64,000 nt of DNA from Microgenomates group bacterium (GTDB lineage Bacteria; Patescibacteriota; Microgenomatia; Daviesbacterales; UBA10151): assembly GCA_041659805.1 (NCBI GenBank), contig JBAZXP010000001.1, positions 589 through 64,588 on the forward strand, given 5' to 3'. The position numbers were made by a program, and so were the translations under genes. Positions within the stretch are counted from its first letter, which is position 1. Each line of letters starts with the position of its first letter. Below the pieces are notes generated by a model. The model was given only the letters and a program-made list of their open reading frames with translations, did no database searches and was not told the DNA's origin. Shown piece after piece: positions 3 to 62,491 of this stretch.

Positions 3-3000
3 ACTAATGCTTCTGCTAATGGGTATACCTGGGGATCATCTAGTACATCAGCTGTTGATGCTTCTGGTAATGTTTCTGCTTCTTTAATTCCTACAGTTAC
101 TGATACTTATGATTTAGGTAGTGCTTCTAAAGAATGGAATAACATTTATGTTAAATCCTTAACAGGTACTGGCACCTTAAATGTAGGGAGCATATCTACA
201 TCTGGTAATCTAACCTTTACCACTCCTAATTCCAGAATTCAGGCTGCTGATTCTTCTTCCACTAACCTTTTGGGTGCTAATAGATATGCTTATTCTAAAC
301 CTGTAACTATTACTAATTCCTCTGCTTCTACCCTAACCACTAATACCACCTATACTTTGGTTATTACTGGTTCTGATGCTGCTGCTATATATTCCAGCTC
401 ACAGGCTGATTTTGATGATGTGAGGATTGGTTATAATGGTAATAATGAAATAACCAGAATCATTGATAAATTTACATCAAGTGAAATATATATTAGATTT
501 GCCATTCAGGCAGATATAGCTGCTTCTGGTGGAACAAATAGCCTTTATGCAATTTACTGGGGTAATATAGCCGTTAGTGCCCCCACTGACTATACCGGAT
601 CCACCTTGCTTGATAGTGCTAATACCGCATCTGATTGGACTACTTCTGATGGTACAAAAATAGCTGTGACTGGAGACACCACTAACTTTACTCAAACAAC
701 AAGTAGTACCCAGCTATTTGCTTCAGGATCAAATATGACTGCTTTTTCCACAACCTCTCAAGGACAATTACCACAAACTATAATGGATCACAGTTCAGCT
801 GTAGCCGCTATTGGAGGAGCAAATTATTTATACATTATAGGGGGTGCTACAAAATCCACTGTTTATAAAGCAACTATTGATGCTTCTGGTAATATAGGAA
901 CTTTTGCCACCACCGGTCAGGGACAGTTACCATCAAATGCCTATAGAACAGGCTCTCATATACTTGCCCTAAATGGCACTAATTATATTTATACCTTAGG
1001 AGGACATAATGGAAGTATCCGTTTATCCACTGTTTATAAAGCAACTATTGATGCTTCTGGTAATATAGGAACTTTTGCTACCACCAGTCAGGGACAGTTA
1101 CCACAAGTCCTTGAAATACCTCATGAATCCAATATGGTTACTATTGGCAGCACAACTTATGTTTATGTAATAGGCGGTTATGGTTCTAGTGCTGTATCCA
1201 CTGTTTATAAAGCAACTATTGATGCTTCTGGTAATATAGGAACTTTTGCCACCACCAGTCAGGGACAGTTACCTGCTACACGTTATTTTCATAGCTCAGA
1301 AACTGTTACTATTGGCGGCACAACTTATGTTTATGTAATAGGCGGCGGCGGACCTTTATCCACTGTTTATAAAGCAACTATTGATGCTTCTGGTAATATA
1401 GGAACTTTTGCCACCACCTCCCAAAAGCAGTTGCCACAAAGTCTTCAAAATCACTCTTCAGTTGTTACTAGCGTTGCTGGAACTAATTACTTATTTGTAA
1501 TAGGTGGTGCGGGTGGTACTGGTTTATCCACTGTTTATAAAGCAACTATTGATGCTTCTGGTAATATAGGAACTTTTGCCACCACCAGTCAGGGACAGTT
1601 ACCAATACAATTGGCTTATCAAACCTCTAATTTAGTTTCAGTTGGAGGAATAAATTATATTTATACTCTGGGGGGTCAAGATCAACAAACGTATGCTACA
1701 AAATCCACAGTCTACAGATCTCAAATAGGCGGAGCTGGTGGAACTGGAGTAACAGTTAGTAGGGATTTAGGAGCTGGTACCACAATAGATCTAACTGGCA
1801 AAAATATGATTACTTTTTGGAGCAGATCTCCAGTTACAGGTGATGCTGCTAATACTGTTGTAGAATTTTCTGAGGATAATGCTACTTGGCAAACAAGTAG
1901 TGCTTTATCTTTAACAACAGCTAATACCTGGGAACAACAATACTGGGATATATCCGGGATTGCTAATGCTGCCAAAGATGCTATTAGATATATTAGATTT
2001 AGATTAACAGGAGATATTCTCCAACTTAACTTTGATTTAATGAGAGGTGAATCTAATTTCTTTGGTGGAACTACCTCTTCTTCTTTAGATTCTACTACTA
2101 CTTTTGGTAATAATTTATACCTTAATACAGAAGGGGGTGGAATTTTAGGATTAAATTATAATTCAGGATCAAATGGTGACTTTAATATTTATAATGGTGC
2201 TACCACTTCCCTATTTACAGTCAAACAAAATGGTAATGTAGGAATTGGTACTACTAATCCTCAATATCTCTTGGATGTTAATGGGACTTTAGGTATAACT
2301 GGAGCTTCCTCATTCACAGGAGCAGCTACTTTTAACTCCACTATAAATTTAACTAATTCTAATACTTTAACAGGGGTAACTAACTATATTCAGGCTAATA
2401 AGGGGTTATCTGTAGGAGCAGGTACTACTTACTACCTGGATCAATCTGGTAATTTATCTGCTAATACTGGTACTTTTGCTTCTACTTTAGGAGTTACAGG
2501 TTTAATTACAGCTTCAGGTGGGTTAACTCTACCAACTAATCAAAACCTGGCTCTTTCTTCTGGTGCTGGTACTTATTCACAAACATTTACAGGTACTACT
2601 ACAGATGCTATGACTGTTACTGCTTCATCATTATCTACTGGTACAGCCTTAACATTAACAGGGCCGACTTCAACTGGAGTTACTGATCATTTTGTAAAAA
2701 TTTCTTCTGATATTGGGGCTGCTTCTTCTTTACTTAATTTAAATCCAGACTTTTCAGGTTCAGCTGTAACTGGATATGGAATCTATAATTTAGCCACAGA
2801 TGCTACAGCTAATGGGAATACTAATTATGGGTATTATGGATCTTTAACCTTAACTGGTAATGCTGCTAAAACTGGGGTTGGTTTATATTCTACCCTTTCT
2901 ACTTCATCCACCACAGCTGATACTTTAATTGCTGCTGATTTAGCTACAAGTGTAAGTGGGATTGTGACAACAGGCACCAGAAATATCTATGGACTCCGTT

Positions 3001-4298
3001 CTCAACCAGCCTCAACTGGAGCTTCCACTGGTGGAACTACCAATGTTTATGGTGAATATGTTAAATCAGGAGGAACAGTTGGAGTAGGTGGAACCATAAA
3101 TTCTTATGGACTATACGTGGCTAATGGAACCATGAATACCACAGGTTTATCTACTAATACAGGTTTGTATGTAGAAACTCCAAGTGGGGCTGATACCAAT
3201 TATGCAGCCATTTTTGCAGGAGGAAATGTAGGTATTGGAACCACTGCCCCTGCTCATACTATTGATGTTGTTGGTGATGCAGGGTTATCTACAGGAACAT
3301 TATGGACTAATACTTCTGATTCACGAGTAAAACAAAATATAGAAACTATTCCTGATGCCCTGGGACTGATTGCCAGATTAAAGCCATCACAATATATGTA
3401 TACTCCTGAGTATTTGGCAAAACATCCTGAGATAAAAGATATAGAACATTATGGATTTATAGCCCAGGACTTCCAGGAAGTGTTCCCTGAAAGTATTTCT
3501 ACAGGAGCTGATGGATTCCTACAGGTTAATGCTTCCAATGTGATTCCTTACATGACCAAGGCTATTCAGGAGTTGTTGGCTAAATTTGAAAATCATGATA
3601 CAAGAATCAAGGATTTGGAGGATAGAATAGCTAGTGGTTCAGCGAATCAGCAGGTCAGCACATCAGCAGGTCAGCTATCCAGCACTTCTGCCGACATTGC
3701 TGATACTCTGAGTATTTCTGACACTCTGAACTTAACCCCACCATCAATTTTGCTCTCTACAATCAGTGCCCAGTTAGTTGATTTAGCAGTTACCTCTGAA
3801 GCTACTTTCTCAGGAAAATTAACAGCATATGAGGCTACTATTTCAGATACCTTTAAATCCTTGGGAGAAACTTTCCTGGGAAATACAACTGTGGCAGGTA
3901 ATTTTAATATTGATGGAACAATGAATATTTCCGGTAATTCCTTAAGCACCTTAGGTGATTTTTATATTCAAAATGGACCTCTGGCAGGAATTATAGATAT
4001 CTTTAATGGCAAAATAATTATTGATGGCTATGGAAATATCACAACTTCCGGACAAGTGACCACTCAAAAGGTAAATATCAGTGAATCTGCAGGACAAGCT
4101 ACCCTGCTTGCTGGTCAGAATTGGCTCACAATCATGAATACTCTGGTTACTGAAAATTCCCTAATCTTTATTACTCCAACTACTGTGACAGACAAAGTTA
4201 TATCTGTAACTCAAAAAAATTCAGGTTCAGATTTCACAGTTCAAATTCAAACTCCATCCACAACAGATATTAAATTTAACTGGTGGATCATTAATTAA
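3..4298 (+). CDS. Giant surface protein paralog, 5'-truncated by the window edge. The reading frame is open from nt 3; the listed M at 270 is internal. It carries a DUF2341-like domain, at least five Kelch-type propeller repeats, a second propeller/lectin-like region and a Peptidase_S74 intramolecular-chaperone (tail-fibre autoprocessing) domain, followed by a ~250-aa tail.
   Basis: The frame starting at nt 3 has no stop and reads TNASANGYTWGSS... The N-terminus aligns with an internal region of the 3056-aa ORF: '...IYSKPVTVNNTSAGT...DYDDVRISYNG...FTSSEINIRFAIQANI' versus 'YSKPVTITNSSAST...DFDDVRIGYNG...FTSSEIYIRFAIQADI'. The unit 'STVYKATIDASGNIGTFATTSQGQLP' repeats. The C-terminus 'SDSRVKQNIETIPDALGLIARLKPSQYMYTPEY...HYGFIAQDFQEVFPESI' matches the S74 IMC consensus SDxRxKxNI...GfIAQEvqeV.P. 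Confidence 0.8.
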   Translation, partial: TNASANGYTWGSSSTSAVDASGNVSASLIPTVTDTYDLGSASKEWNNIYVKSLTGTGTLNVGSISTSGNLTFTTPNSRIQAADSSSTNLLGANRYAYSKPVTITNSSASTLTTNTTYTLVITGSDAAAIYSSSQADFDDVRIGYNGNNEITRIIDKFTSSEIYIRFAIQADIAASGGTNSLYAIYWGNIAVSAPTDYTGSTLLDSANTASDWTTSDGTKIAVTGDTTNFTQTTSSTQLFASGSNMTAFSTTSQGQLPQTIMDHSSAVAAIGGANYLYIIGGATKSTVYKATIDASGNIGTFATTGQGQLPSNAYRTGSHILALNGTNYIYTLGGHNGSIRLSTVYKATIDASGNIGTFATTSQGQLPQVLEIPHESNMVTIGSTTYVYVIGGYGSSAVSTVYKATIDASGNIGTFATTSQGQLPATRYFHSSETVTIGGTTYVYVIGGGGPLSTVYKATIDASGNIGTFATTSQKQLPQSLQNHSSVVTSVAGTNYLFVIGGAGGTGLSTVYKATIDASGNIGTFATTSQGQLPIQLAYQTSNLVSVGGINYIYTLGGQDQQTYATKSTVYRSQIGGAGGTGVTVSRDLGAGTTIDLTGKNMITFWSRSPVTGDAANTVVEFSEDNATWQTSSALSLTTANTWEQQYWDISGIANAAKDAIRYIRFRLTGDILQLNFDLMRGESNFFGGTTSSSLDSTTTFGNNLYLNTEGGGILGLNYNSGSNGDFNIYNGATTSLFTVKQNGNVGIGTTNPQYLLDVNGTLGITGASSFTGAATFNSTINLTNSNTLTGVTNYIQANKGLSVGAGTTYYLDQSGNLSANTGTFASTLGVTGLITASGGLTLPTNQNLALSSGAGTYSQTFTGTTTDAMTVTASSLSTGTALTLTGPTSTGVTDHFVKISSDIGAASSLLNLNPDFSGSAVTGYGIYNLATDATANGNTNYGYYGSLTLTGNAAKTGVGLYSTLSTSSTTADTLIAADLATSVSGIVTTGTRNIYGLRSQPASTGASTGGTTNVYGEYVKSGGTVGVGGTINSYGLYVANGTMNTTGLSTNTGLYVETPSGADTNYAAIFAGGNVGIGTTAPAHTIDVVGDAGLSTGTLWTNTSDSRVKQNIETIPDALGLIARLKPSQYMYTPEYLAKHPEIKDIEHYGFIAQDFQEVFPESISTGADGFLQVNASNVIPYMTKAIQELLAKFENHDTRIKDLEDRIASGSANQQVSTSAGQLSSTSADIADTLSISDTLNLTPPSILLSTISAQLVDLAVTSEATFSGKLTAYEATISDTFKSLGETFLGNTTVAGNFNIDGTMNISGNSLSTLGDFYIQNGPLAGIIDIFNGKIIIDGYGNITTSGQVTTQKVNISESAGQATLLAGQNWLTIMNTLVTENSLIFITPTTVTDKVISVTQKNSGSDFTVQIQTPSTTDIKFNWWIIN
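845..1610 (+). repeat. Intragenic tandem repeats: five near-identical ~171-nt (57-aa) units encoding propeller blades.
   Basis: The string 'tccactgtttataaagcaactattgatgcttctggtaatataggaacttttgccaccac(c/t)(a/g)gtcagggacagttacc' recurs at about 855, 1026, 1197, 1359 and 1527. Periods are 171, 171, 162 and 168 nt. A sixth unit near 1700 is degenerate. Confidence 0.85.
3225..3625 (+). repeat. Long dispersed repeat, copy A, pairing with 59280..59680. It is the S74-domain coding block shared by the two giant paralogs and includes a ~105-nt stretch of 100% nucleotide identity.
   Basis: 'ggtattggaaccactgcccctgctcatactattgatgttgttggtgatgcagggttatctacaggaacattatggactaatacttctgattcacgagtaaa' is identical at 3236-3340 and 59289-59393. 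The flanks are about 90% identical. Confidence 0.85.
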
Positions 4299-51315: not shown

Positions 51316-54300
51316 ATGTCTCTGCCCCAAAACCAATCTCAACAGTTAGTGCCCGTAGGTCAGGCTGCCAAGATATTAGATGTTTCTGTTGATACTATCC
51401 GCAGATGGGAGAAAAAAGGAATACTTCAATCCACCAGGCCAAATGGTAAAGACCGTTATTTTTCCCTGGAAGATTTACATAAAGTTAAAGCCTCCAAGCC
51501 AATCTTAATCTCTGATGCTGCTAAAACTTTGGGTGTTTCCCCTGCCATTTTAAGAAAAATGGAAAAGGAAGGAAAGATTCAACCACAAAGAGATGAAAAA
51601 GGTACTAGGATCTATGATCAAAACATCTTGAAAACTGTTAATTCAAATATTACTACTGTAGAAGAATTACTTGATCTAAGTAGATCAGAAGGTAACTCTC
51701 AGTATCATATCCCTTTAACAGAAAGCAAGTTACATGAGTATGCAAATAGCTATGAGCAAGTGGCAAGTAGCCAGAAATTTCTAGCTCTCAGCCACAAGCT
51801 ACAAGCTACAAGCATTGTTTCAGGTGTATTAGCCTCATTAGTTTTGGCCGTCTTAGTTCTAGCCAGAGTTTCTAATTTTGATTTAGCCAATTTAGCTATG
51901 AGCTATGGGCAAGTGGCAAGTGGCCAGAAGCAATTAGCCACTAGCTATAAGCCCCTTGCACTTAGCAATTCTAACGTCCTTGCTGCTACGACCTCAAACC
52001 ATTACCTGAATTTTGCTACAGACTTAATAGTAGAGGGAGATTTAGCAGTAGGGGGATTACTTAATAATATAAAACTAATCCCAGGAGGAGATAATGTTAA
52101 TAGGACTTTAACAGTTTCTGCTCCTGTTACTTTAGACCAAGATTTATCTACTGCTAGTTCCCCTACTTTTGCAGGTTTAACAGTACTTTCCCCAATTAAT
52201 GCGCCTTCTGCTTCTACCTCAACTTTAAGTTTAACAGGTACTAAAGATCAAATTACTTTTGATGTATCAGGTGTTAAAAGCACATTAACCTGGACTCCTA
52301 CCTCTGCTCAAACTTTAACCTTACCCAATGCTACAGATACCCTGGTTGGTAGAGCTACTACAGATACTTTAACCAATAAAACAATTTCAGGATCTGATAA
52401 CACCATCTCCAATATCCAGTCCTCTGCTCTGTCTGGAAGCTATACTGGTATCACAGGATTAGGAACAATTACCACAGGCACCTGGAACGGGACAAAAATA
52501 GGGACAACCTATGGGGGAACAGGGCTCACAACATATACAACAGGTGATTTACTATATAGTAGCGCATCAAATACTTTAGCTAATTTAGCAGTAGGAACTG
52601 CTGGGCAGGTATTAACAGTCTCAGGAGGCCTACCTGCCTGGACTGCCTCTTCCTCTATTGTTGATTTAACTTCTGTTGCTTCAAATATACTGCCTTCAGT
52701 CAATAACACATATGATTTAGGATCTTTAACTAATCAATGGCAAGATGCCTGGTTTGCAGGAACTTTAACTGTGGCAGGAAATATAGTTGGAGCTACCACA
52801 GGAACTTCTGGTTATTGGACCAGAAATGATGCTACCGGAGATCTATATTCAGCCACACTCACAGATCAAATAGGTATAGGCACTACTGCTCCTGCTTCCC
52901 AGTTAGAAATTAAAGCCACAACTAATCCTGCTTTAAGTTTATATGCAGGAAGTGGCACAGACAATATCTTTCAGGTCTTCAATAATGCTGGGGATACTAC
53001 CTACTTTGCTGTTGATTCAACAGGTAAAATGTCTTCCTCTGCTTTTCAATTAACTGATGCTGCTAATGCTGTAGTGGGTACTGCTATTGCTGGAGGCTGG
53101 ACTTTAAATGGTAATACCTTTACCTACAGAAGAATTATTACTATCACCAACTCATCAGGATCAACTATGCCTAAGTATTATGAAATATCCTTACCTCTTT
53201 CTTCTTCTGATTCTAATCATGTATATACTAATTCTCAACAAGCTTCTCCTTACAAGGATTTTAGGATAGCATATGATTCTGGTACCCCTACAGAGATAGC
53301 CAGGAATGTTTCATCTTTTACTTCATCAAATGTTACTACCACTTTCCAACTTCAAGCCAGTATAGCCAACTCAGGAACTGCTACCTATTATATTTATTAC
53401 TCAAATTCAACTTTGGCTACTACCCCTGATACTTATACAGGTACTACTGTTTTGGATAATGGGGATGCAGCTATTGATTGGACTTCTGGTTCTAGCGATT
53501 TTGCTTTATCTCAAGAAACTACAATAAAACATGAAGGTACAGGAAGTTTAAAAACAGTTTCTTCATTGGGCACAATGGGAGCTTTTGCTACAACATCTCA
53601 AGGACAGCTATCAACAATACTTAATTCCCCAACTTCCTTTTCTACCTCTTTAGGCGGAACAAATTATGTTTATGTATTGGGCGGAAATAATGGATCCGCC
53701 GATGTATCGACTGTTTACAAAGCTGATTTAAATACTACAACTGGAAATATTTCTACCTTTACTACCACTTCTCAAGGGCAGCTGCCGCAAGTATTATCCG
53801 GAGCTGCTTCTGTAGCTGCTGTCCCGTCTATTGATGGAGGGACTGGGGCTGATGGGACACTGGATTTATCCTTAGGTAGTGGCGCTGGTGGATGTAATGG
53901 TACTGGTCTTTCCTGGGCTGGATCTACTTGTACTATAGATACTGATACTAAATCCACTTTTAATTTTACTACTATTAATGTTTCAGCTGGTACCACCTTA
54001 ACTACTTCTGGCACTACTTTTCCTACCCTTAAAGCTACAGGATCTGTAACAATAGCGGGAGCTATCGACTTAGCAGGTAAAGGCTATGCAGGAGGATTAA
54101 CAAGTGGCAATGCAGGATGCAACGGTTACGGACCAGGTTTTGGTCGGGCTTTTAATGGCAATGCAACCCAAGGCAATTGTGCTTTTGCAACATCAATAAA
54201 TGCTGGTGGTGGAGGTGGCTATGGCGGTGCAGGAGGCACTGGAGCAGTGGGTTCTGTTGCAGGAACAACTTATGACACAGCAGCAGTCGGTAGTGGTGGT

Positions 54301-57300
54301 GGTGGAGGTGGAAATGGTGGTAATGGCTATGGCGGTGCAGGAGGAGGAGGAATACAAATTCAAAGCGGAAGCACGATTTCTATAACCGGCACAATTTCAG
54401 CAAATGGCGCAAATGGAATTACTACTGCAGCTTATGCTGGCGGTGGCGGAGGTGGTAGCGGCGGAAGAATAACCTTGCAAGCTGCAAGCGCAATTACCAA
54501 CTCAGGCACCATCAGCGCCAATGGAGGTAATGGTGGAGGCAGTGATGCTGGTGGAAGAGGTGGAGGTGGCGGAGGCGGCGGAAGAATAACCATTCAGGAT
54601 AGCAGTGGAGCTGCAGGGGGAACTATCACTGCTACTTATGGAACTGGTGCTATTGCTACTCAAGGAAATGGTGCCAATGGAACAGCTGGTGTAATAACAC
54701 AAACAGCTAATCCTACCTTAATTTATCTTTTAGGCGGTATTAATGGATCTACCAGACAATCCACTGTCTATAAATCAAGTATTACAGGATCAGATTTAGG
54801 AGCTTTTGATACCACCTCCCAAGCTCAACTACTTGTAGCGCTCTCTTACCCAACTTCTCAAACTATAACTATTAGCAATACCAGCTATGTATATGTCCTG
54901 GGTGGAAACAGTGCTTCCGGTGATGTTTCTACTGTGTATAGATCAACCGTAACTTCCGGTAATTTAGAAACTTTTGCCACAACAAACCAAGGTCAACTTC
55001 CACAAGTTTTATCCAAGCACTCCTCCTCTACTGTTAGTATCAGTGGAACCAATTATGTCTATGTTATAGGAGGCATTAACGGGTCAACCGCCCAATCAAC
55101 CGTATATAAATCAACCGTAGATGGTTCTGGTAATTTATCCAGTTTTGATACAACAAATCAAGGACAATTACCAGCTGCTTTGTATTCCACTTCCTCAAAT
55201 ATAGCTACTGTTGGAGGAACAAGTTACCTTTATGTACTTGGGGGAATAAATAGTGGTGGGAGTAAGGTTAGTACAGTGTATAAAGCTCAGATTGGGGCTA
55301 CTGGTGACATAGGAGCATTTTCTACCACAGGTCAAAATCAGCTCCCTGCTGCTTTAGGTTCCCTTTCTTCTGTTACAGCAACAGTAGGTACTTCACAATA
55401 TATTTATACTTTGGGTGGAGCTGGTACTTCTGCCTCAGTCAGCACTGTGTATAAAGCCAAGATTAATGATATGAGCAGCTCATATGCTACCAAAACCTTA
55501 ACTTCCACTGATTTAACCAATAAAAATGATTTAACTTTCTGGGTTTACTCAGATACTACAGGAGCATATATGCACTTTGATATCTATGATTCAACAGCTG
55601 GTTGGACTAATTGTGCTGATTTTACTATTTCCTCTGCTTCTACCTGGGAACAAAAGAGTTGTGATATATCAGCTGTAGCTGCTGCTTCCAAAGATGGGAT
55701 CACATCTTTAAGGATTTCTACTGATTCAACAGTTAATATTACTTCCTCCTTTACCACTTACTTTGATGATATCCAAGCTACACCTAATTTTGCTTCCTTT
55801 TCTAACACTACCTCCTATGCCAGAGCTATCCTTGGAGCTGCTAATTTAGCTGTTAATGCCCAGGGTACAGGTTTGGTCCAAATTAACTACTCTGCCTCCC
55901 CTAATGCTGCAGCAGGATCTGGAGGCTTTGCTCTGTATGATGGCACTACTAATGCTTTGTTTGTAGTTGATGGAACTGGGACAGTTACCACAGGTATCTG
56001 GAATGGGACTGATATAGCTGTTACTGCTGGAGGTACAGGAGCCTCTACTGCTGCTGATGCCAGAACTAATTTAGGACTGGCTATAGGAACCAATGTTCAA
56101 GCCTATGATGCTGATTTAACTACTTATGCAGGTATTACTCCTTCTGCTAATGTTCAAACACTCTTGGGTTCTGCTGATTATGCTACAGCTAGAACCAATT
56201 TAGGCTTAGGAACTATGGCTACTCAAAACATAGCAGGAATATCTGCAGCTATTTTACCTGATACTAATAATAGTTATGATTTAGGATCTGTTACCAATCA
56301 ATGGCAGGATGCCTGGTTTGCTGGTAATTTAACTGTAGCTGGGAATTTAATAGGAGCATCATCTGGCACTGCTGGGTATTTCTCAAGATCAGGCACTACC
56401 CTTTCTACTGCTACTGCTGGAGATAATATTACTACCACTGGATCTGTAGGAGTTGGTACTACCTCCCCTACTTCTACTGCTAAACTTGATGTAGCTGGAA
56501 ATATAGCTTTGTCTACTAATGGTTCTTCTATTAAAGCTTTGGATTCCTCTACCTCAAATACTGTTGGAGGAAATAGCTTTATTTATTCCAAACCAGTCAC
56601 AGTAAATAACACTTCTGCAGGTACAATGTCCCAAAATACCACCTACACTTTAATGCTGACAGGCACAGATGCTTCTGATGTTTATTCCAATTCCCAGGCT
56701 GATTATGATGATGTGAGAATTTCGTATAACGGAACAGAAATAGCAAGGGTGGTTGATAAATTTACATCATCTGAGATTAATATCAGGTTTGCCATCCAGG
56801 CTAATATCCTAACTTCTGCCTCTGATGCAAATTATAGAATTCATTATGGAAATGCCGGTCTTTCTGCTCCTACTGCTTATTCTGGATCTACTGTTTTAGA
56901 TCAGTCTGATGCTGCTTCAGATTGGACTTCTTCTGATACTGCCCAAATTGTCATGTCTGATGATACAACCTACTATGTAGAAACTACCGGCAGCGTCAAA
57001 GGAACAGGACAATCCAGCAACTTACAGGCCTTTGCCACCACCAGTCAAGGACAGCTACCTGATACAGTTGCTAACAATTCAGTAACCTCAGCCACCATAG
57101 GTGGAACTACTTATGTTTACTCACTTGGAACAAATGGTGGTTCAGGTACTAATTCTGCTGTTTATAAAGCTGTTCTTGACGGGTCAAATAATCTTGGATC
57201 ATTTAGCACTACCAACCAGGCCCAGTTCCCACAAAACTTTAGTTATACCGCTCCCTTTACTGCTACTTTCAGTGGTACAACCTACTTATATGCTATAGGA

Positions 57301-60300
57301 GGCTTTTCTAGTGCTGCAACATCAGTTGTATATAAAGCTACTCTTGGAGCAACAGGTGATATTGGACCGTTTAGTACCACCAATCAGGCTCAACTACCTG
57401 CAACAGTATATTCTCATAAGGGGGTAGTGATAAATATGGGTGGAACTAATTATATTTATATAATCGGAGGACTTGGTTCTTCAGCTGTATACAAAGCTAC
57501 TATTAATTCAACTACCGGTGATATTGGGGCATTTGATACCACCAGCCAGGGACAATTATTGGCAACTTCTGCTGGTCTGACTGCCACTGCTGCCTCAATT
57601 GGAGGGACTAATTATATTTATGTGATCGGTGGAGGCAGCACAGGCAATACTGTTGTTTATAAAGTCCTTGTTGATGGTTCTGGTAATCTTGGACCATTTA
57701 GCACCACCAATCAAGCTCAATTACCAGCCAAACAAAAAGACCATACCACACAAATAGCCACCATTGGCGGAACCAGTTACATTTACTCTATGGGGGGTAT
57801 CTCCCTTGCTACAAGTCAGTCAGTTGTTTATAAAGCCCAGATTGATCCTGCCACTGGTAATGTGGGAACTTTTGATACCACCAGCCAGGCTCAATTACCA
57901 GACACCCTAAAAAATGCCTCTTCCTTTGTTTTTGCCAATGGAGGGATCAACTACATTTATACAATTGGGGGCGCTCTTGGTGGTGCCAGCTGGTCTTCTG
58001 TTGTATATAAAGCCCAGATTGGAGGAGCTATTGGTAACGGTGTAACTATTACAAAAACAATAAGCAGCACTGATTTAACTGGTAAGAATATGGTTACTTA
58101 CTGGTTAAGAGCAGCTGAAACAGCTACAGCTGCTAATTTAGTATTGGAATTTAGTAATGATGGTGGGACTAATTGGAGTACTTCAGCTGCCCCATCCTTA
58201 ACTTCTGCTGATACCTGGCAGCAGCAGTATTGGGATATTTCTGGAATTGCTAATGGATCTAAAAATACTACCACCAAGCTCAGATTTAGGTTAACTGGGG
58301 ATGTTAATGGTTCTTTCCAATTTGATCAGGTTAGGGCAGAAGGAACACTTTTTTCTGGTACTTCTACCTCCACAGTTGGTTCTACCAATTCTCTAACCAA
58401 TAATTTATATCTTAATGCTCAGGGTCTGGGAGTTTTAGGTATTAATTATAATTCAGGCAGCTCTGGTGGATTTACTGTTTTTAATGGTGGAACAACTGCT
58501 CTGATGAATGTATTACAAAATGGTAATGTGGGAATTGGTACTACAGCTCCTGGACAAAAACTGGATCTTTCATCTGGTTCTTCTTTTGGAATTAATGGGA
58601 CTGCAGTATTATCCGGGACTGTATTAGGCACTGGAGTAGTTACTTCATCCTTAACTACTGTAGGAGCTTTGGCTTCAGGTTCCATTGCAACTGGCTTTGG
58701 TAATATCTCAACAGCTAATACTATCACTACCTCTGGAACTATGGGCACAGCTGCCACCACTGCTTTTACAGGCTTAACAGGAGTATTTTCTACCTCTGTC
58801 ACTTCCCCACTAATCATAGGATCAACTTCTGCCAATGGTACTTTAACCTTAGAAGGAAATAATACAACAGGAAATACTGCCACCAATCCTAATTTATTCT
58901 TTAAGGTTGGAGATTCTGCAGGCACAACTGCCATAACTATTCTAAATAATGGAAATATAGGAATTGGAACCACTTCCCCTGGAGCTAAACTGGATATTGG
59001 TACTGGTAATATTAAATTTAAAGGTGATGACGCCAATAATGGTGGAGGTCAAAATGCTCTAATTGCATATGGAAGTGATAATTTTGCCTGGACTGATGGT
59101 TGGGGAAACCTAAAATTTGGAACAAAAACCAATCAAACCTTAGGACTGGAAACAAGTGGTTATGGTGACTTTTATCTAAAAGATAACAGTGCCAGCAGAA
59201 ATGTAATTCAATATTGTAATTCTTCCTGCGGTACAAATGGAGGGTTATTGCGTCTTCAACCAGCAGGTGGAAATATCGGTATTGGAAGCAGTGTGGGTAT
59301 TGGAACCACTGCCCCTGCTCATACTATTGATGTTGTTGGTGATGCAGGGTTATCTACAGGAACATTATGGACTAATACTTCTGATTCACGAGTAAAGCAG
59401 AATATAGAAACAATTCCTGATGCTTTGGGACTGATTTCAAGATTAAAACCTTCACAGTATCTATATACCCCAGAATATTTAGCCAAGCATCCTGAGATAA
59501 AAGATATAGAACATTATGGATTTATAGCCCAGGACTTCCAGGAAGTGTTCCCTGAAAGTATAACTACAGGAGCTGATGGATTCCTGCAGGTTAATGCTTC
59601 CAATGTGATTCCTTATATGACCAAAGCTATTCAGGAACTGCTGGCTAAATTTGAAAACCATGATACAAGAATTAAAAACCTTGAAGATGTCATTGCGAGC
59701 AACTCAGCAGTTCAGCTAGTCAGCAGTTCAGCTAGTCAGCAATCAAGTCAATCAGCTGATATCGCCGATACTCTGAACATTGCCGATTCGCTGAACTTAA
59801 CCCCACCATCAATCCTGCTTTCTACTACCAGTGCTCAGTTAGTAGATTTGTCTGTTGCCTCAGAAGCTACTTTCTCAGGAAAATTAACAGCATATGAGGC
59901 TACCATCTCTGATACCTTCAAATCACTCGGTAATACTTTCCTGGGAAATACTACGATAGCAGGAGACTTTAATATAGATGGAACAATGAGCATTACTGGA
60001 AATTCTATAAGCACACTGGGTAACTTATTTATCCAAAATGGACCGTTAGCAGGAAATGTAGACTTCTTTAATGGAAAAGTAGTGATTGATAATCAGGGTA
60101 ATATTAAGGTTGGAGGAAACTTAGAAGTAGCTGGCGCAATGGTAATTGCAGCTAACGCAGGCGAAGACTTGGTGGCGGGAGAGGCTGTTTATATTTCATC
60201 AGATGGAACTGTCAGCAAATCTGATTCAACTGTTTCAGAAAAGGCCCAAATAGTGGGTTTAGTTGCTTCAGATGCTATTCAAAACAGTGAGGTAAGGGTA

Positions 60301-60486
60301 GCTATTAGTGGTAAATTAGGCGGATTTACAAACCTAATTGCAGGCAAAAAATACTACCTTGGAGAATTTGGTCAAATCACCACTACCCCACCAATAAACA
60401 TACTAAGACATATCCAAGCAGGCATCGCTTTCAGTTCAACTGAAATTATAATTCAAATCTTTGACTTTAACGGATTAATAAATTAA
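51316..60486 (+). CDS. Giant (3056-aa) membrane-tethered surface protein. From the N-terminus it has two MerR/Xis-type HTH domains, one TM helix, repeated beta-propeller/Kelch regions, a Gly-rich low-complexity block, a DUF2341-like domain, more Kelch repeats, a lectin-like region and a Peptidase_S74 IMC domain plus a ~250-aa tail.
   Basis: The HTH domains are 'VGQAAKILDVSVDTIRRWEKKGIL' and 'ISDAAKTLGVSPAILRKMEKEGKI'. The TM is 'IVSGVLASLVLAVLVLARV'. The Gly-rich block is 'GGGGGYGGAGGTGAVGS...GGGGGGNGGNGYGGAGGGG'. DUF2341 is 'YSKPVTVNN...DYDDVRISYNG...IRFAIQANI...YRIHYGN'. The S74 domain is 'SDSRVKQNIETIPDALGLISRLKPSQYLYTPEY...HYGFIAQDFQEVFPESI'. Confidence 0.8.
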   Translation: MSLPQNQSQQLVPVGQAAKILDVSVDTIRRWEKKGILQSTRPNGKDRYFSLEDLHKVKASKPILISDAAKTLGVSPAILRKMEKEGKIQPQRDEKGTRIYDQNILKTVNSNITTVEELLDLSRSEGNSQYHIPLTESKLHEYANSYEQVASSQKFLALSHKLQATSIVSGVLASLVLAVLVLARVSNFDLANLAMSYGQVASGQKQLATSYKPLALSNSNVLAATTSNHYLNFATDLIVEGDLAVGGLLNNIKLIPGGDNVNRTLTVSAPVTLDQDLSTASSPTFAGLTVLSPINAPSASTSTLSLTGTKDQITFDVSGVKSTLTWTPTSAQTLTLPNATDTLVGRATTDTLTNKTISGSDNTISNIQSSALSGSYTGITGLGTITTGTWNGTKIGTTYGGTGLTTYTTGDLLYSSASNTLANLAVGTAGQVLTVSGGLPAWTASSSIVDLTSVASNILPSVNNTYDLGSLTNQWQDAWFAGTLTVAGNIVGATTGTSGYWTRNDATGDLYSATLTDQIGIGTTAPASQLEIKATTNPALSLYAGSGTDNIFQVFNNAGDTTYFAVDSTGKMSSSAFQLTDAANAVVGTAIAGGWTLNGNTFTYRRIITITNSSGSTMPKYYEISLPLSSSDSNHVYTNSQQASPYKDFRIAYDSGTPTEIARNVSSFTSSNVTTTFQLQASIANSGTATYYIYYSNSTLATTPDTYTGTTVLDNGDAAIDWTSGSSDFALSQETTIKHEGTGSLKTVSSLGTMGAFATTSQGQLSTILNSPTSFSTSLGGTNYVYVLGGNNGSADVSTVYKADLNTTTGNISTFTTTSQGQLPQVLSGAASVAAVPSIDGGTGADGTLDLSLGSGAGGCNGTGLSWAGSTCTIDTDTKSTFNFTTINVSAGTTLTTSGTTFPTLKATGSVTIAGAIDLAGKGYAGGLTSGNAGCNGYGPGFGRAFNGNATQGNCAFATSINAGGGGGYGGAGGTGAVGSVAGTTYDTAAVGSGGGGGGNGGNGYGGAGGGGIQIQSGSTISITGTISANGANGITTAAYAGGGGGGSGGRITLQAASAITNSGTISANGGNGGGSDAGGRGGGGGGGGRITIQDSSGAAGGTITATYGTGAIATQGNGANGTAGVITQTANPTLIYLLGGINGSTRQSTVYKSSITGSDLGAFDTTSQAQLLVALSYPTSQTITISNTSYVYVLGGNSASGDVSTVYRSTVTSGNLETFATTNQGQLPQVLSKHSSSTVSISGTNYVYVIGGINGSTAQSTVYKSTVDGSGNLSSFDTTNQGQLPAALYSTSSNIATVGGTSYLYVLGGINSGGSKVSTVYKAQIGATGDIGAFSTTGQNQLPAALGSLSSVTATVGTSQYIYTLGGAGTSASVSTVYKAKINDMSSSYATKTLTSTDLTNKNDLTFWVYSDTTGAYMHFDIYDSTAGWTNCADFTISSASTWEQKSCDISAVAAASKDGITSLRISTDSTVNITSSFTTYFDDIQATPNFASFSNTTSYARAILGAANLAVNAQGTGLVQINYSASPNAAAGSGGFALYDGTTNALFVVDGTGTVTTGIWNGTDIAVTAGGTGASTAADARTNLGLAIGTNVQAYDADLTTYAGITPSANVQTLLGSADYATARTNLGLGTMATQNIAGISAAILPDTNNSYDLGSVTNQWQDAWFAGNLTVAGNLIGASSGTAGYFSRSGTTLSTATAGDNITTTGSVGVGTTSPTSTAKLDVAGNIALSTNGSSIKALDSSTSNTVGGNSFIYSKPVTVNNTSAGTMSQNTTYTLMLTGTDASDVYSNSQADYDDVRISYNGTEIARVVDKFTSSEINIRFAIQANILTSASDANYRIHYGNAGLSAPTAYSGSTVLDQSDAASDWTSSDTAQIVMSDDTTYYVETTGSVKGTGQSSNLQAFATTSQGQLPDTVANNSVTSATIGGTTYVYSLGTNGGSGTNSAVYKAVLDGSNNLGSFSTTNQAQFPQNFSYTAPFTATFSGTTYLYAIGGFSSAATSVVYKATLGATGDIGPFSTTNQAQLPATVYSHKGVVINMGGTNYIYIIGGLGSSAVYKATINSTTGDIGAFDTTSQGQLLATSAGLTATAASIGGTNYIYVIGGGSTGNTVVYKVLVDGSGNLGPFSTTNQAQLPAKQKDHTTQIATIGGTSYIYSMGGISLATSQSVVYKAQIDPATGNVGTFDTTSQAQLPDTLKNASSFVFANGGINYIYTIGGALGGASWSSVVYKAQIGGAIGNGVTITKTISSTDLTGKNMVTYWLRAAETATAANLVLEFSNDGGTNWSTSAAPSLTSADTWQQQYWDISGIANGSKNTTTKLRFRLTGDVNGSFQFDQVRAEGTLFSGTSTSTVGSTNSLTNNLYLNAQGLGVLGINYNSGSSGGFTVFNGGTTALMNVLQNGNVGIGTTAPGQKLDLSSGSSFGINGTAVLSGTVLGTGVVTSSLTTVGALASGSIATGFGNISTANTITTSGTMGTAATTAFTGLTGVFSTSVTSPLIIGSTSANGTLTLEGNNTTGNTATNPNLFFKVGDSAGTTAITILNNGNIGIGTTSPGAKLDIGTGNIKFKGDDANNGGGQNALIAYGSDNFAWTDGWGNLKFGTKTNQTLGLETSGYGDFYLKDNSASRNVIQYCNSSCGTNGGLLRLQPAGGNIGIGSSVGIGTTAPAHTIDVVGDAGLSTGTLWTNTSDSRVKQNIETIPDALGLISRLKPSQYLYTPEYLAKHPEIKDIEHYGFIAQDFQEVFPESITTGADGFLQVNASNVIPYMTKAIQELLAKFENHDTRIKNLEDVIASNSAVQLVSSSASQQSSQSADIADTLNIADSLNLTPPSILLSTTSAQLVDLSVASEATFSGKLTAYEATISDTFKSLGNTFLGNTTIAGDFNIDGTMSITGNSISTLGNLFIQNGPLAGNVDFFNGKVVIDNQGNIKVGGNLEVAGAMVIAANAGEDLVAGEAVYISSDGTVSKSDSTVSEKAQIVGLVASDAIQNSEVRVAISGKLGGFTNLIAGKKYYLGEFGQITTTPPINILRHIQAGIAFSSTEIIIQIFDFNGLIN
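59280..59680 (+). repeat. Long dispersed repeat, copy B, pairing with 3225..3625. It is the S74-domain block of the giant gene.
   Basis: See copy A. The identical stretch runs 59289-59393. Confidence 0.85.
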
Positions 60487-60496
60487 TCTTAAGATA

Positions 60497-61351
60497 ATGC
60501 CTAAGTTTTTAATAAAATCTGCTTCTATTTTTTTATCACTGATTATACTCGCCACAATCAACCTCCCACTGGTTTTAGCGCAAGAATCAGGTTCTGTAGA
60601 CTGGACATATACTTATTCTATTGCTGATAAAGATGCTGTTGATGGTGATATTATTTCCTCTTCAACAGATAAAGGACTCACCAGAGCAAACTTCCCATAT
60701 GATTCTCATATGTTTGGTGTTATGCAAAAAACCCCTTTGGTTGTCTATACCAGTTTTGAAAATACTGGTTTACCTATTGCCAGATCAGGGACAGCCACAG
60801 TCAATGTTACCACCTTAAACGGACCAATTGTCCCGGGAGATTATATTACTACCTCCGAAATACCGGGCAAAGGACAAAAAGCAACAGATTCAGGAAATGT
60901 GCTTGGTATTGCTCTGACTCCATTAGGACCCTCAGACGGAACTGAAACCAGCTATCAGCCAACATCTACAACAGGCAAACAAAATCCAGCCATAAAAGTA
61001 AGAGCTGGAAAAGTAACAGTTGCCCTAAGAGTAGAATATGCCGAAATAACTACAGCCAGGACAGCTTTAAGGCTACTTGATTCATTTAATGCAGCATTAT
61101 TTACCAATGTTCAAAATCCTGATCAATTCGTTAAAATCTTCCGTTATATCACTGCTATAGTCATAGTTTTGATTTCATTCACCATTGGTTTCTTAACATT
61201 CTCCAGAGCCATTCCTAAAGGGATTGAGGCAATTGGGAGAAACCCCTTAGCTCAAAAAACCATTATCTTTTCTATTGTGCTTAATATAATCTTCACATTG
61301 GTAACAGCTATAGCAGGTATAGCAGCTGCTATCCTCATATTAAAGTTTTGA
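60497..61351 (+). CDS. Hypothetical exported protein with a C-terminal two-helix membrane hairpin.
   Basis: The signal peptide is 'IFLSLIILATINLPLVLA'. The C-terminus 'ITAIVIVLISFTIGFLTFSRAIPKGIEAIGRNPLAQKTIIFSIVLNIIFTLVTAIAGIAAAILIL' forms a helix, a GRNP loop and a second helix. Confidence 0.45.
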   Translation: MPKFLIKSASIFLSLIILATINLPLVLAQESGSVDWTYTYSIADKDAVDGDIISSSTDKGLTRANFPYDSHMFGVMQKTPLVVYTSFENTGLPIARSGTATVNVTTLNGPIVPGDYITTSEIPGKGQKATDSGNVLGIALTPLGPSDGTETSYQPTSTTGKQNPAIKVRAGKVTVALRVEYAEITTARTALRLLDSFNAALFTNVQNPDQFVKIFRYITAIVIVLISFTIGFLTFSRAIPKGIEAIGRNPLAQKTIIFSIVLNIIFTLVTAIAGIAAAILILKF

Positions 61352-61373
61352 CATAAAAAGTACTCACAAATTT

Positions 61374-61546
61374 GCCCGCTTGGAATGAAAAGCGTAAAAA
61401 TCTCGACAAGCCAATATCAGGGGGAGGTCCGAACACTTTCGGAGGGGGAAAACTTTCCCCCGATTAATTGGCGAGGAGAGATTAGCTTTTCTTCCGCGGG
61501 CAGAGTTTTACCACGCTTTTGCGGTCAAAAGCGTGAAAGAAAAAAA
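61374..61546 (+). ncRNA. Copy 2 of the ~172-nt repeated structured element (see 29457..29627).
   Basis: The three conserved blocks are identical to copy 1. Variable segment 1 is 34 nt in both copies, and variable segment 2 is 27 and 28 nt, yet the variable sequences have diverged. Confidence 0.45.
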
Positions 61547-61780
61547 TATTATCTTTTTTTATATGCGTCTTTGGTGGCAAAGACGCCCAAAGCCACTTTG
61601 ACAGGAAGTAAGCAAAGCTTGCCTTTTGCTTTCGCAAAAGGTGTACGCTAAATTTTAACGCGATTAGCGCGGAGCGCGAGGCGCAATAGCGACTCATTCC
61701 AAGTCAAAGAAATAACTAAAGCTGCAGAAAAAGAGACTTGGTGATTGAATTTTTTTGATAATTCCCTTATTCTTTAGTTA

Positions 61781-62491
61781 ATGCCCAAAACTCTTCTTTT
61801 TGAAATAGTTGCTCTCGTAATCAGCCTTGTTGTGGCTGTTATCTCGCTTATCCTATATCTGGAAGAGTACAGACGCCGGCGTAAAGCCAAACTGGCAGAA
61901 AAAGGCTTCCAGGAAGCCAATACCACTGAACAAAAAAGCCTCAATATCCTCTATCGGGCAATGAAAAAAGCCCAGACAATTATTGGAAATGCCGAGCTTG
62001 AAGGAATCAAGGTAGGGGCTCAAAACCGCTTGGCTGAAAAAAAGGCTGAAACCTTATTTGAAAATCAGTTGTCTGTTTCACGATCTGAGTTGGAAAAAGA
62101 AATGTCTTTGCAAGTGAACAAAACATATTCTGAATATATAAAATTCCTGGACGCTTTAAAGGAACAAAATAATCAAATTCAGGCGGTCAACCAGGAAGCT
62201 ATCAAACAAAGAGCCAACACTATTTTTGATAAGTTTGAGCAAAATTTAGGCACATTTTTAACTTCTACAGAGCAGAAAAGTGTCCAGTCAATCGAGCTTG
62301 AACTGCGTTCTGCCAGACAATTAATTGAAACCTATAAAACACAACAAATTGCAATTATTGATGAAAATATTATTTCTATTTTAGAAAGAACTTTAACCTT
62401 GATTTTGGCTAAGAAAATCCCTCTAAAAGACCAAATGGATTTGGTTTATGAAGCATTAAATAAAGCTAAAGTGGAGAAATTCGTGGTTTAA
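61781..62491 (+). CDS. atpF: F-type ATP synthase subunit b-like protein.
   Basis: It has a single N-terminal TM ('LLFEIVALVISLVVAVISLILYL') and a long charged coiled coil. It sits immediately upstream of the delta and alpha subunit genes. Confidence 0.55.
   Translation: MPKTLLFEIVALVISLVVAVISLILYLEEYRRRRKAKLAEKGFQEANTTEQKSLNILYRAMKKAQTIIGNAELEGIKVGAQNRLAEKKAETLFENQLSVSRSELEKEMSLQVNKTYSEYIKFLDALKEQNNQIQAVNQEAIKQRANTIFDKFEQNLGTFLTSTEQKSVQSIELELRSARQLIETYKTQQIAIIDENIISILERTLTLILAKKIPLKDQMDLVYEALNKAKVEKFVV

Follow-up and report, generated by a model that had tools for sequence, protein, structure and literature searches.

A non-terminal S74 domain with an intact Ser-Lys motif precedes a shaft and a tip in two giant paralogous proteins of a Microgenomates bacterium

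In textbook accounts, the S74 or intramolecular chaperone (IMC) domain is a folding aid at the C-terminus of phage fibres that is cut off and discarded. A 64,000-nucleotide stretch of the genome of a Microgenomates group bacterium (the window; contig JBAZXP010000001.1, positions 589 to 64,588) encodes two giant paralogous proteins, designated here W1 and W2, in which the same domain is followed by more than 200 additional residues. What can an autoprocessing domain accomplish in the interior of such a protein, and is the arrangement peculiar to this locus? To our knowledge, the single case known so far in which the domain is internal and both cleavage products matter is the eukaryotic protein MYRF. 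Bacteria of the candidate phyla radiation (CPR) are obligate episymbionts, and their host-attachment machinery is largely unknown. The two genes and their parts are the following:

3..4298, + strand: W1, the 3' part of a putative giant surface-fibre gene (at least 1566 aa) that is cut by the left edge of the window
3225..3314, + strand: last β-helix rung of W1 with its capping loop (NVGIGTTAPAHTIDVVGDAGLSTGTLWTNT), ending at the predicted scissile Thr-Ser bond
3315..3644, + strand: S74 IMC autoprocessing domain of W1 with its C-terminal coiled coil (Ser codon 3315-3317, Lys codon 3330-3332)
3645..3722, + strand: Ser/Thr/Gln-rich linker of W1, predicted to be disordered (pLDDT <50); its 3' limit, before LNLTPP, is approximate
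3723..4085, + strand: post-IMC shaft of W1, from LNLTPPSILL to IIIDGYGNITTSG, plus the connector to the tip; common to W2 up to about 4025
4086..4295, + strand: tip of W1, a predicted tailspike-type β-sandwich (K1-lyase_C, PF24146), ending in FNWWIIN
51316..60486, + strand: W2, a complete giant paralog of 3056 aa, delimited from its open reading frame (ORF)
59380..59709, + strand: S74 IMC of W2 (Ser2689 codon 59380-59382, Lys2694 codon 59395-59397)
59710..60090, + strand: linker and shaft of W2, homologous to those of W1 (BLASTP alignment, shared DNA block and Tandem Repeats Finder, TRF)
60091..60483, + strand: tip of W2, 131 aa, unrelated to the tip of W1, similarity to which ceases at about nt 4025/60090

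Both copies of the domain score well above threshold with the Pfam profile PF13884 (Peptidase_S74; 49.6 bits in W1 and 49.1 bits in W2, with a cut-off of 22). The match covers residues 2689-2748 of the 3056 in W2 and residues 1016-1075 of W1 when counted from nt 270, and the IMC cores of the two proteins are 94% identical. Twenty PHROG tail-fibre and tailspike families match the W1 domain as well, with E-values down to 4e-21, and their alignments reach, or nearly reach, the C-termini of their own profiles yet stop at about residue 210-215 of a W1 fragment beginning with nt 3000. This places the end of the IMC near nt 3644 in W1, 217 aa before the end of the protein, and near nt 59709 in W2, 258 aa before it. 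A previous inspection of this DNA by eye of a model, without database searches (the sequence-only reading), had placed some 250 aa after a non-terminal IMC, which these lengths confirm, and the peptide that it quoted is found in both proteins. Its premise, that the IMC of described S74 proteins is the extreme C-terminus, agrees with the 20 phage profiles and with 75 of 78 viral relatives (see below) but not with MYRF and its Dictyostelium counterpart MrfA, in which the domain is internal. The architecture of the phage proteins endoNF and T5 pb1, with a strictly C-terminal IMC, is not that of W1 or W2.

The catalytic motif reads SDSRVK in W1 and W2 alike and conforms to the S-D-x-x-x-K pattern; none of the 22 IMCs in alignment A2 departs from its Ser, Asp or Lys. 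The Ser-Lys dyad is equivalent to S587/K592 of MYRF and S911/K916 of endoNF. The sequence-only reading had considered that substitutions of these residues might mark the domain as a structural relic; since the dyad is intact in both copies, a relic is unlikely. Among solved structures, the best sequence match is human MYRF's ICA (intramolecular chaperone auto-processing) domain (7dc3; E = 1.8e-8 with a single sequence and 5e-18 with a profile), followed in the structure-profile comparison by the MAT fibres of Bdellovibrio and the long tail fibre of phage S16. Aligned to MYRF, W1 keeps S587, R590, K592, Y615, Y617, I637, Q639, E647, F666, L667 and V669, and the alignment includes the C-terminal coiled-coil helix up to ...RIKDLE. 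In MYRF itself, mutation of these residues, of which those from Y615 to V669 belong to the cutting hole, blocks or perturbs cleavage (PMC8326128). Ahead of the domain, the segment VGIGTTAPAHTIDV aligns, at the level of sequence, with the MYRF stalk (7dc3) and with GINTAAPAYNIHV at the mature end of Bd3182 (8ojn). The capping-loop motif of the triple β-helix stalk has been described previously (PMC10769870), and profile comparisons match the capping-loop rungs to 8ond, 8ojn and 8oml.

The part of the chain that follows the IMC is organized in the same way in both proteins up to the tip. A linker of about 30 aa comes directly after the coiled coil and leads to the conserved LNLTPP motif and a β-rich shaft of about 100 aa that is conserved in 24 aligned homologues. 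In a monomer model of the W1 tail, built from a 25-sequence alignment, the predicted local distance difference test score (pLDDT) of the shaft is 64-84, that is, of moderate confidence, while the tip is modelled as a β-sandwich with a pLDDT above 90. The W1 tip scores 29 bits with PF24146 against a cut-off of 27, and Foldseek relates its model to the Pam1 tailspike (7eea), a Klebsiella phage depolymerase (9k4a), the R2 pyocin fibre (6cl6), phi297 gp61 and the K1 lyase (7w1c), and, in BFVD, to phage K1-lyase_C proteins (E = 8e-6). The W2 tip scores 16.9 bits with PF09956 (Phage_cement_2), under the cut-off of 24, and the homologue P0020 (64% identical) scores 27.1 bits, which points to a phage-cement-like (β-tulip) domain as the probable identity of this tip; a homologue search with the W2 tip as query returned no match. 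Within the tail that W1 and W2 share, the nonsynonymous divergence (dN) is 0.06-0.13, as opposed to a proportion of synonymous differences (pS) of 0.43-0.79, and this tail is therefore a constrained functional protein, not a decaying remnant.

The linker has a peculiarity at the DNA level. Immediately after the IMC, TRF detects in W2 a perfect 16-nt tandem repeat of 2.4 copies (59704-59741), the counterpart of which in W1 is imperfect (14/16 identical, about 3639-3675). The period is not a multiple of three, and in a simulation the gain or loss of one unit in W2 brings a stop about 20 codons past the start of the repeat; after such a one-unit change, W2 would have the canonical form, tailless and with the IMC at its C-terminus. 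The repeat could be a slippage switch, or it could simply be low-complexity coding sequence. The linker of a homologous protein on the metagenome contig L020, described below, differs in sequence from that of W1 and W2.

Is this layout special to the locus? An exhaustive HMMER search of 1.84 billion cluster representatives with the IMC retrieved 63,761 relatives, the best 150 of which were examined. The match lies on the IMC core in 140 of these 150, and the length of sequence after the IMC is below 30 aa in 88, at least 100 aa in 36 and at least 200 aa in 26. By a stricter measure, with the two window proteins left out, there are 29-30 internal IMCs among the nearest representatives. All in all, some 30-34 of the 138 nearest representatives carry 100 aa or more beyond the IMC. 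The layout is thus not unique, about one in four or five of the closest relatives sharing it, and the S-x4-K motif is retained in all 29 internal relatives that could be scored, just as in all 94 terminal ones. About 10 of the nearest representatives carry a shaft and FNWW tip of the W1 type; in other internal relatives the tails are Ig-like and Thr/Pro-rich, cement-like, or other sandwiches that end in F-x-W. Seven representatives (P0029, P0038, P0066, P0080, P0118, P0122 and P0127) have two IMCs in tandem, each with the motif: S-x4-K is present in every domain and, except in the first one of P0127, takes the form SD-x3-K. By their sequences, such tandem S74 domains would imply multi-site processing of a single precursor.

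Genomes provide sources for a part of these proteins. Among species-representative genomes, five loci encode an IMC followed by 76-473 aa, the named ones belonging to Blackburnbacteria and Moraniibacteriota and three being labelled 'uncultured Gammaproteobacteria', and loci that have only the tail include those of Daviesbacteria, Levyibacteriota and Roizmanbacteria. On the contig L020, the same IMC and shaft recur together with the FNWWI tip in a protein of 1479 aa. As a viral control, the 80 best relatives from viral contigs were inspected: in 75 of 78 closed ORFs the IMC is followed by fewer than 30 aa, and one viral relative has about 114 aa by an uncertain extrapolation. The internal IMC is recurrent in giant proteins, the identifiable sources of which are cellular, mostly CPR, and it is essentially non-viral. 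In the searchable literature, the coverage of which does not extend to most subscription journals, we found no earlier account of bacterial or CPR S74 domains that are internal or arranged in tandem, and surveys of jumbo phages and of extracellular contractile injection systems describe the usual chaperone role of S74 only. Apparently, an internal S74/IMC domain upstream of an exchangeable tip in CPR giant fibres has so far been undescribed.

Three known systems invite comparison. The IMCs of phage endosialidases, tailspikes and tail fibres (K1F endoNF, T5 pb1, S16) share with those of W1 and W2 the PF13884 domain, the SDxxxK dyad, the β-helical stalk in front and the coiled coil behind, but the phage domain stands at the extreme C-terminus, whereas in W1 and W2 a linker, shaft and tip of 217-258 aa lie beyond it, and the carrier is a chromosomally encoded giant CPR protein instead of a virion protein. 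The MAT fibres of Bdellovibrio bacteriovorus (Bd3182, 8ojn; Bd2133, 8ond) are cellular, non-phage trimeric fibres whose capping-loop β-helix rungs are like those of the present proteins. They end in either an S74 domain or an adhesive tip, never both, and their tips are swapped among paralogs (PMC10769870). W1 and W2 differ in having S74 and tip in series in one chain and in being 1.5-3 times larger; and where MAT proteins have a signal peptide and then a conserved β-rich domain of about 130 aa, W2 starts with two MerR-type helix-turn-helix (HTH) domains and a transmembrane (TM) helix. The third system, MYRF and MrfA, has the same domain in an internal position, and both cleavage fragments persist (PMC3742443, PMC8326128). 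Its ICA is the sole characterised internal S74 domain with a long downstream region, and it shares the dyad and most cutting-hole residues with W1 and W2. MYRF is, however, a eukaryotic transcription factor of the endoplasmic reticulum membrane with a TM segment after the ICA and an N-terminal DNA-binding trimer that is released, whereas in W2 the TM helix is N-terminal, the ICA is extracellular, the downstream part has no TM segment and cleavage cannot free the HTH region; nor did Pfam detect an Ndt80-type domain, and the architecture is not of the MYRF type. As to the W1 tip, its likeness to the C-terminal sandwich of phage tailspikes and depolymerases (PF24146; Pam1 7eea, K64-1 S2-4 9k4a, K1 lyase 7w1c) consists in sequence and predicted fold; in phages K1-lyase_C directly follows an enzymatic β-helix, whereas the W1 tip follows the IMC and a short shaft.

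W2 is composed, in order, of two MerR-type HTH domains, one TM helix, a fibre/propeller region of about 2500 aa that would be extracellular, the IMC, linker, shaft and tip; Pfam recognizes MerR, HTH_17, S74 and, weakly, Kelch. The only hydrophobic segment is that at aa 165-185 (mean Kyte-Doolittle hydropathy, KD, 2.5), the presumptive TM helix. By its sequence, W2 appears to be anchored by the N-terminal cytoplasmic HTH region and this single helix. A scan of the predicted C-terminal fragments of W1 and W2 found no hydrophobic segment above a mean KD of 1.3, and a membrane or wall anchor in these fragments was rejected on this ground. W1 and W2, which are 49% identical over about 1358 aa, are best viewed, by analogy, as paralogous giant surface fibres that would be trimeric and of the adhesin or receptor-binding type.

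The pair of HTH domains (51355-51639) is of the MerR/excisionase type and, with the single TM helix (51808-51870), would make up a DNA-binding module tethered to a 2800-aa extracellular fibre. At least seven other giant relatives begin in the same way (P0020, P0024, P0028, P0100, P0163, L001 and L004). The module might act as a one-component sensor in the manner of ToxR, or it might tether the nucleoid. Release of the HTH region by the IMC in the manner of MYRF was considered and rejected, as the two lie on opposite sides of the sole TM helix.

W1 and W2 also resemble each other in DNA sequence across the IMC, and here the features are the following:

3227..4025 = 59292..60090, + strand: shared DNA block, 84.4% identical, with a sharp 5' edge (blastn, window profiles and edge alignment)
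3231..3331 = 59296..59396, + strand: putative conversion tract 1, 101 nt exact, abutting the 5' end of the block and ending in the Lys codon
3423..3496 = 59488..59561, + strand: putative conversion tract 2, 74 nt exact

The sequence-only reading had reported an exact stretch of about 105 nt between 3236-3340 and 59289-59393, in flanks about 90% identical, and took it as a sign of recent gene conversion. At these positions only 29 of 105 nucleotides match, the register being in error by 12 nt; an exact run does exist, 101 nt long and at an offset of 56,065. Neither flank is about 90% identical. On the 5' side the two copies are unrelated before 3227, with no more than random similarity through 3226 and perfect identity from 3231; upstream of the block, blastn aligns only short patches of about 76%. 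A codon-based comparison of the upstream 3 kb gives saturated synonymous sites (pS 0.5-0.8). On the 3' side, the 91-nt patch between the tracts (3332-3422) is 80% identical, with 15 of its 18 mismatches at third positions.

Most of the similarity within the block is old. In the IMC, dN between W1 and W2 is 0.01-0.02 while pS is 0.22, 0.49 and 0.28 in successive 35-codon windows; the identity of the block therefore stems mostly from purifying selection on old paralogs, and a single recent transfer of all 800 nt was rejected in view of synonymous divergence that is near saturation over most of it. The exact tracts stand out against this background: when third-position differences are permuted, the longest run has p = 0.008 and the two longest jointly p = 5e-4. 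Third positions of W1 and W2 agree at 33/33, 16/31, 24/24 and 21/25 sites in four successive sub-tracts, compared with 17/33, 16/31, 13/24 and 11/25 (about 50%) between W1 and L020, which is from another organism. Since L020 agrees at about 50% in all sub-tracts, the tracts are under no nucleotide-level constraint, and the idea that an RNA or DNA element causes the identity was rejected. The best explanation, judging from these sequences, is recent short-tract gene conversion within the IMC-coding part (101 + 74 nt), so that the earlier proposal would apply to two short tracts and not, as a single recent event, to the 84% block. A third IMC copy as donor of the divergent patch was rejected, the 64 kb containing two copies only, as was a foreign origin of the IMC cassette, the GC content of which is 0.38-0.39 compared with 0.37-0.41 around it. 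Collapse of the two copies during assembly is unlikely because their flanks are distinct and an independent contig is identical.

At the very start of the shared block (59275-59304), W2 reads GNIGIGSS followed directly by VGIGTTAP, with GGTATTGGAA occurring twice, 17 nt apart, whereas in W1 GNVGIGTTAP occurs once. It has the look of a small duplication, or of a scar left at the recurrent capping-loop motif by a recombination junction.

How, then, might an internal IMC work? By homology with endoNF, T5 pb1, Bd3182 and MYRF, the IMCs of three chains would associate through the C-terminal coiled coil and template the triple β-helix upstream of them, and the Ser-Lys dyad would then cut the Thr-Ser bond ahead of SDSRVK. 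One product would be a membrane-anchored fibre ending in ...LWTNT, the other a separate, anchorless and presumably trimeric fragment comprising IMC, shaft and tip, with a predicted size of 327 aa (35.3 kDa) in W1 and 368 aa (39.0 kDa) in W2. Trimerisation, templating and the Ser-Lys cut have been shown for endoNF, Bd3182 and MYRF (PMC10769870, PMC8326128), and it is by analogy with them that cleavage, trimerisation and the fate and role of the C-terminal fragment are proposed for W1 and W2. With moderate confidence we favour this account as a whole, in which an intact internal IMC trimerises, cuts and frees the IMC-shaft-tip fragment from the anchored fibre, while gene conversion has acted on tracts of the IMC. 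Of the two outcomes that the sequence-only reading had left side by side, a released C-terminal fragment or a non-cleaving variant, release is thus judged the likelier, the cleavage step itself being transferred from homologues.

Several points weigh against this account. We know of no experimental or proteomic evidence of cleavage for any internal S74 domain of a prokaryote. For an adhesin it would be counter-intuitive that a cut parts the anchored fibre from what appears to be its receptor-binding tip. K671 of MYRF, near the reaction centre, is Ala in W1, and T634 is Tyr. The structural model is of a monomeric tail with a shaft of moderate confidence, and trimer geometry is outside it. The inference of conversion is based on two copies and one outgroup. 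Finally, the library of representatives carries no taxonomy, and the assignment of the layout to cells and to CPR rests on 18 genome loci, several of them labelled 'uncultured Gammaproteobacteria'.

In a rival account the bond is cut but the pieces stay together, with the fragment bound non-covalently at the end of the fibre, the tip still serving as the distal receptor-binding domain and the joint perhaps parting under force or upon a signal, as in SEA and GAIN modules. The tips do resemble distal receptor-binding or decoration domains of phage fibres, for which a place after the IMC makes most sense if they are attached; they differ between the paralogs on a conserved shaft, as determinants of specificity would; and the cleaved strand of MYRF threads the IMC 'donut' (PMC8326128). 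In every characterised case (endoNF, T5 pb1, Bd3182 and MYRF), on the other hand, the products separate (PMC10769870, PMC8326128, PMC12143355; in the last of these, the S74 domain has no density), and W1 and W2 show no feature that points to an extra affinity between the fragments. We consider a lasting association rather doubtful.

The chain could also remain intact, the internal IMC being a trimerisation and folding nucleus that persists as a permanent clamp between two fibre segments. An internal domain with another shaft and a tip beyond it recalls a continuous fibre, the lack of K671 in W1 would fit, and the binding of TMEM98 downstream of the MYRF ICA blocks self-cleavage (PMC7153906), from which it follows that downstream sequence can modulate cutting; by analogy, it is a possibility that the sequence downstream of the ICA in W1 and W2 is regulatory. 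A non-cleaving IMC nevertheless seems unlikely to us: the Ser, Asp and Lys do not vary, whether in the two copies, in 29/29 internal relatives or in 94/94 terminal ones, the cutting-hole residues are conserved, dN in the IMC is only 0.01-0.02, and an unused dyad should have been lost in some lineages.

An artefactual origin, in which collapse during assembly would have made the tract identical and the tail would stem from a mis-assembly, a gene-call fusion or a pseudogene in decay, is very improbable: the source is indeed a metagenome-assembled genome (MAG), the public contig of the same organism breaks within W2 and the repeats of both genes are hard to assemble, but IMC and tail occur together in both paralogs, in an independent identical 9.5-kb contig, in L020 and in five genome loci of other organisms, the frames are open and under purifying selection, the copies have distinct flanks, typical reads or k-mers span more than 101 nt, and the GC content is uniform.

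A sizeable fraction of the closest non-viral relatives thus have a catalytically intact IMC with a shaft and tip after it, and the ones whose taxonomic place is known are giant proteins of CPR bacteria. If cleavage occurs, single genes of these bacteria yield fibres in two pieces, at the surface or secreted; the annotation and study of giant 'tail fiber domain-containing' proteins would change; and a simple, testable system would be available for the role of a non-terminal IMC. More tentatively, internal S74 domains may be built-in 'fold-then-cut' separators in CPR giant proteins, converting an exported, anchored precursor into two trimeric products, or into several where the IMCs are in tandem, among them a soluble, lectin-like factor with exchangeable tips that acts on the host or the surroundings without the anchored fibre; such a precursor would amount to a fibre polyprotein of prokaryotes. 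In a variant of this idea, equally new, the cut would yield a breakable non-covalent joint between fibre and tip. The conversion mosaic suggests that the IMC cassette is kept uniform between the paralogs while the tips diverge, the same logic as the swapping of tips in phage receptor-binding proteins.

Some details of the two genes remain to be given. The frame of W1 is open from nt 3, that is, up to the left edge of the window, and the TTG start at nt 270 in the ORF list is an artefact, the reading frame being open upstream of it. The W1 translation is identical (100%) to residues 136-1566 of a public protein, P0018, a record of 1566 aa that is N-terminally partial too. Full-length W2 is absent from public gene-product records, the only one recorded being a truncated call from GCA_041665125.1, the assembly that holds the independent contig mentioned above (L019, JBAYJL010000005.1); this contig is identical to 52926-62486 of the window (about 9.5 kb) and terminates within W2. 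Repeat-rich giant genes such as these evidently fragment assemblies, as seen in the end of L019 within W2 and in the partial public record of W1, and records probably understate how long and how numerous they are. The nearest relatives come from Candidatus Daviesbacteria and other Microgenomates/Patescibacteria MAGs; judged by such best hits, the bacterium is probably close to Daviesbacteria. Between W1 and W2 lie genes of the usual chromosomal kind, among them radA, tRNA genes and those of an ABC transporter.

The long regions upstream of the IMC contain repeats of several kinds. In W1, a tandem array of 4.5 copies of a 171-nt unit (854-1604; 77% match) codes for blades that are almost identical to one another (STVYKATIDASGNIGTFATTSQGQLP...) and match Kelch weakly; in W2, similar but more diverged blades are found three times. 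Residues 960-1102 of W2 (54193-54621) are 41% glycine (GGGGGYGGAGGTG...GRITLQ...GRITIQ) and look like a Gly-rich β-helix or repeat region. Directly downstream of W2 (60497-61351) is a gene for a 284-aa membrane protein, the N-terminal domain of which (aa 30-173) is homologous to internal segments of the giant fibre ORFs in L001, L002 and L010. A homologue of this membrane protein adjoins the giant ORF in L011 as well, and the protein may be a partner of the giant fibres or a donor of modules to them.

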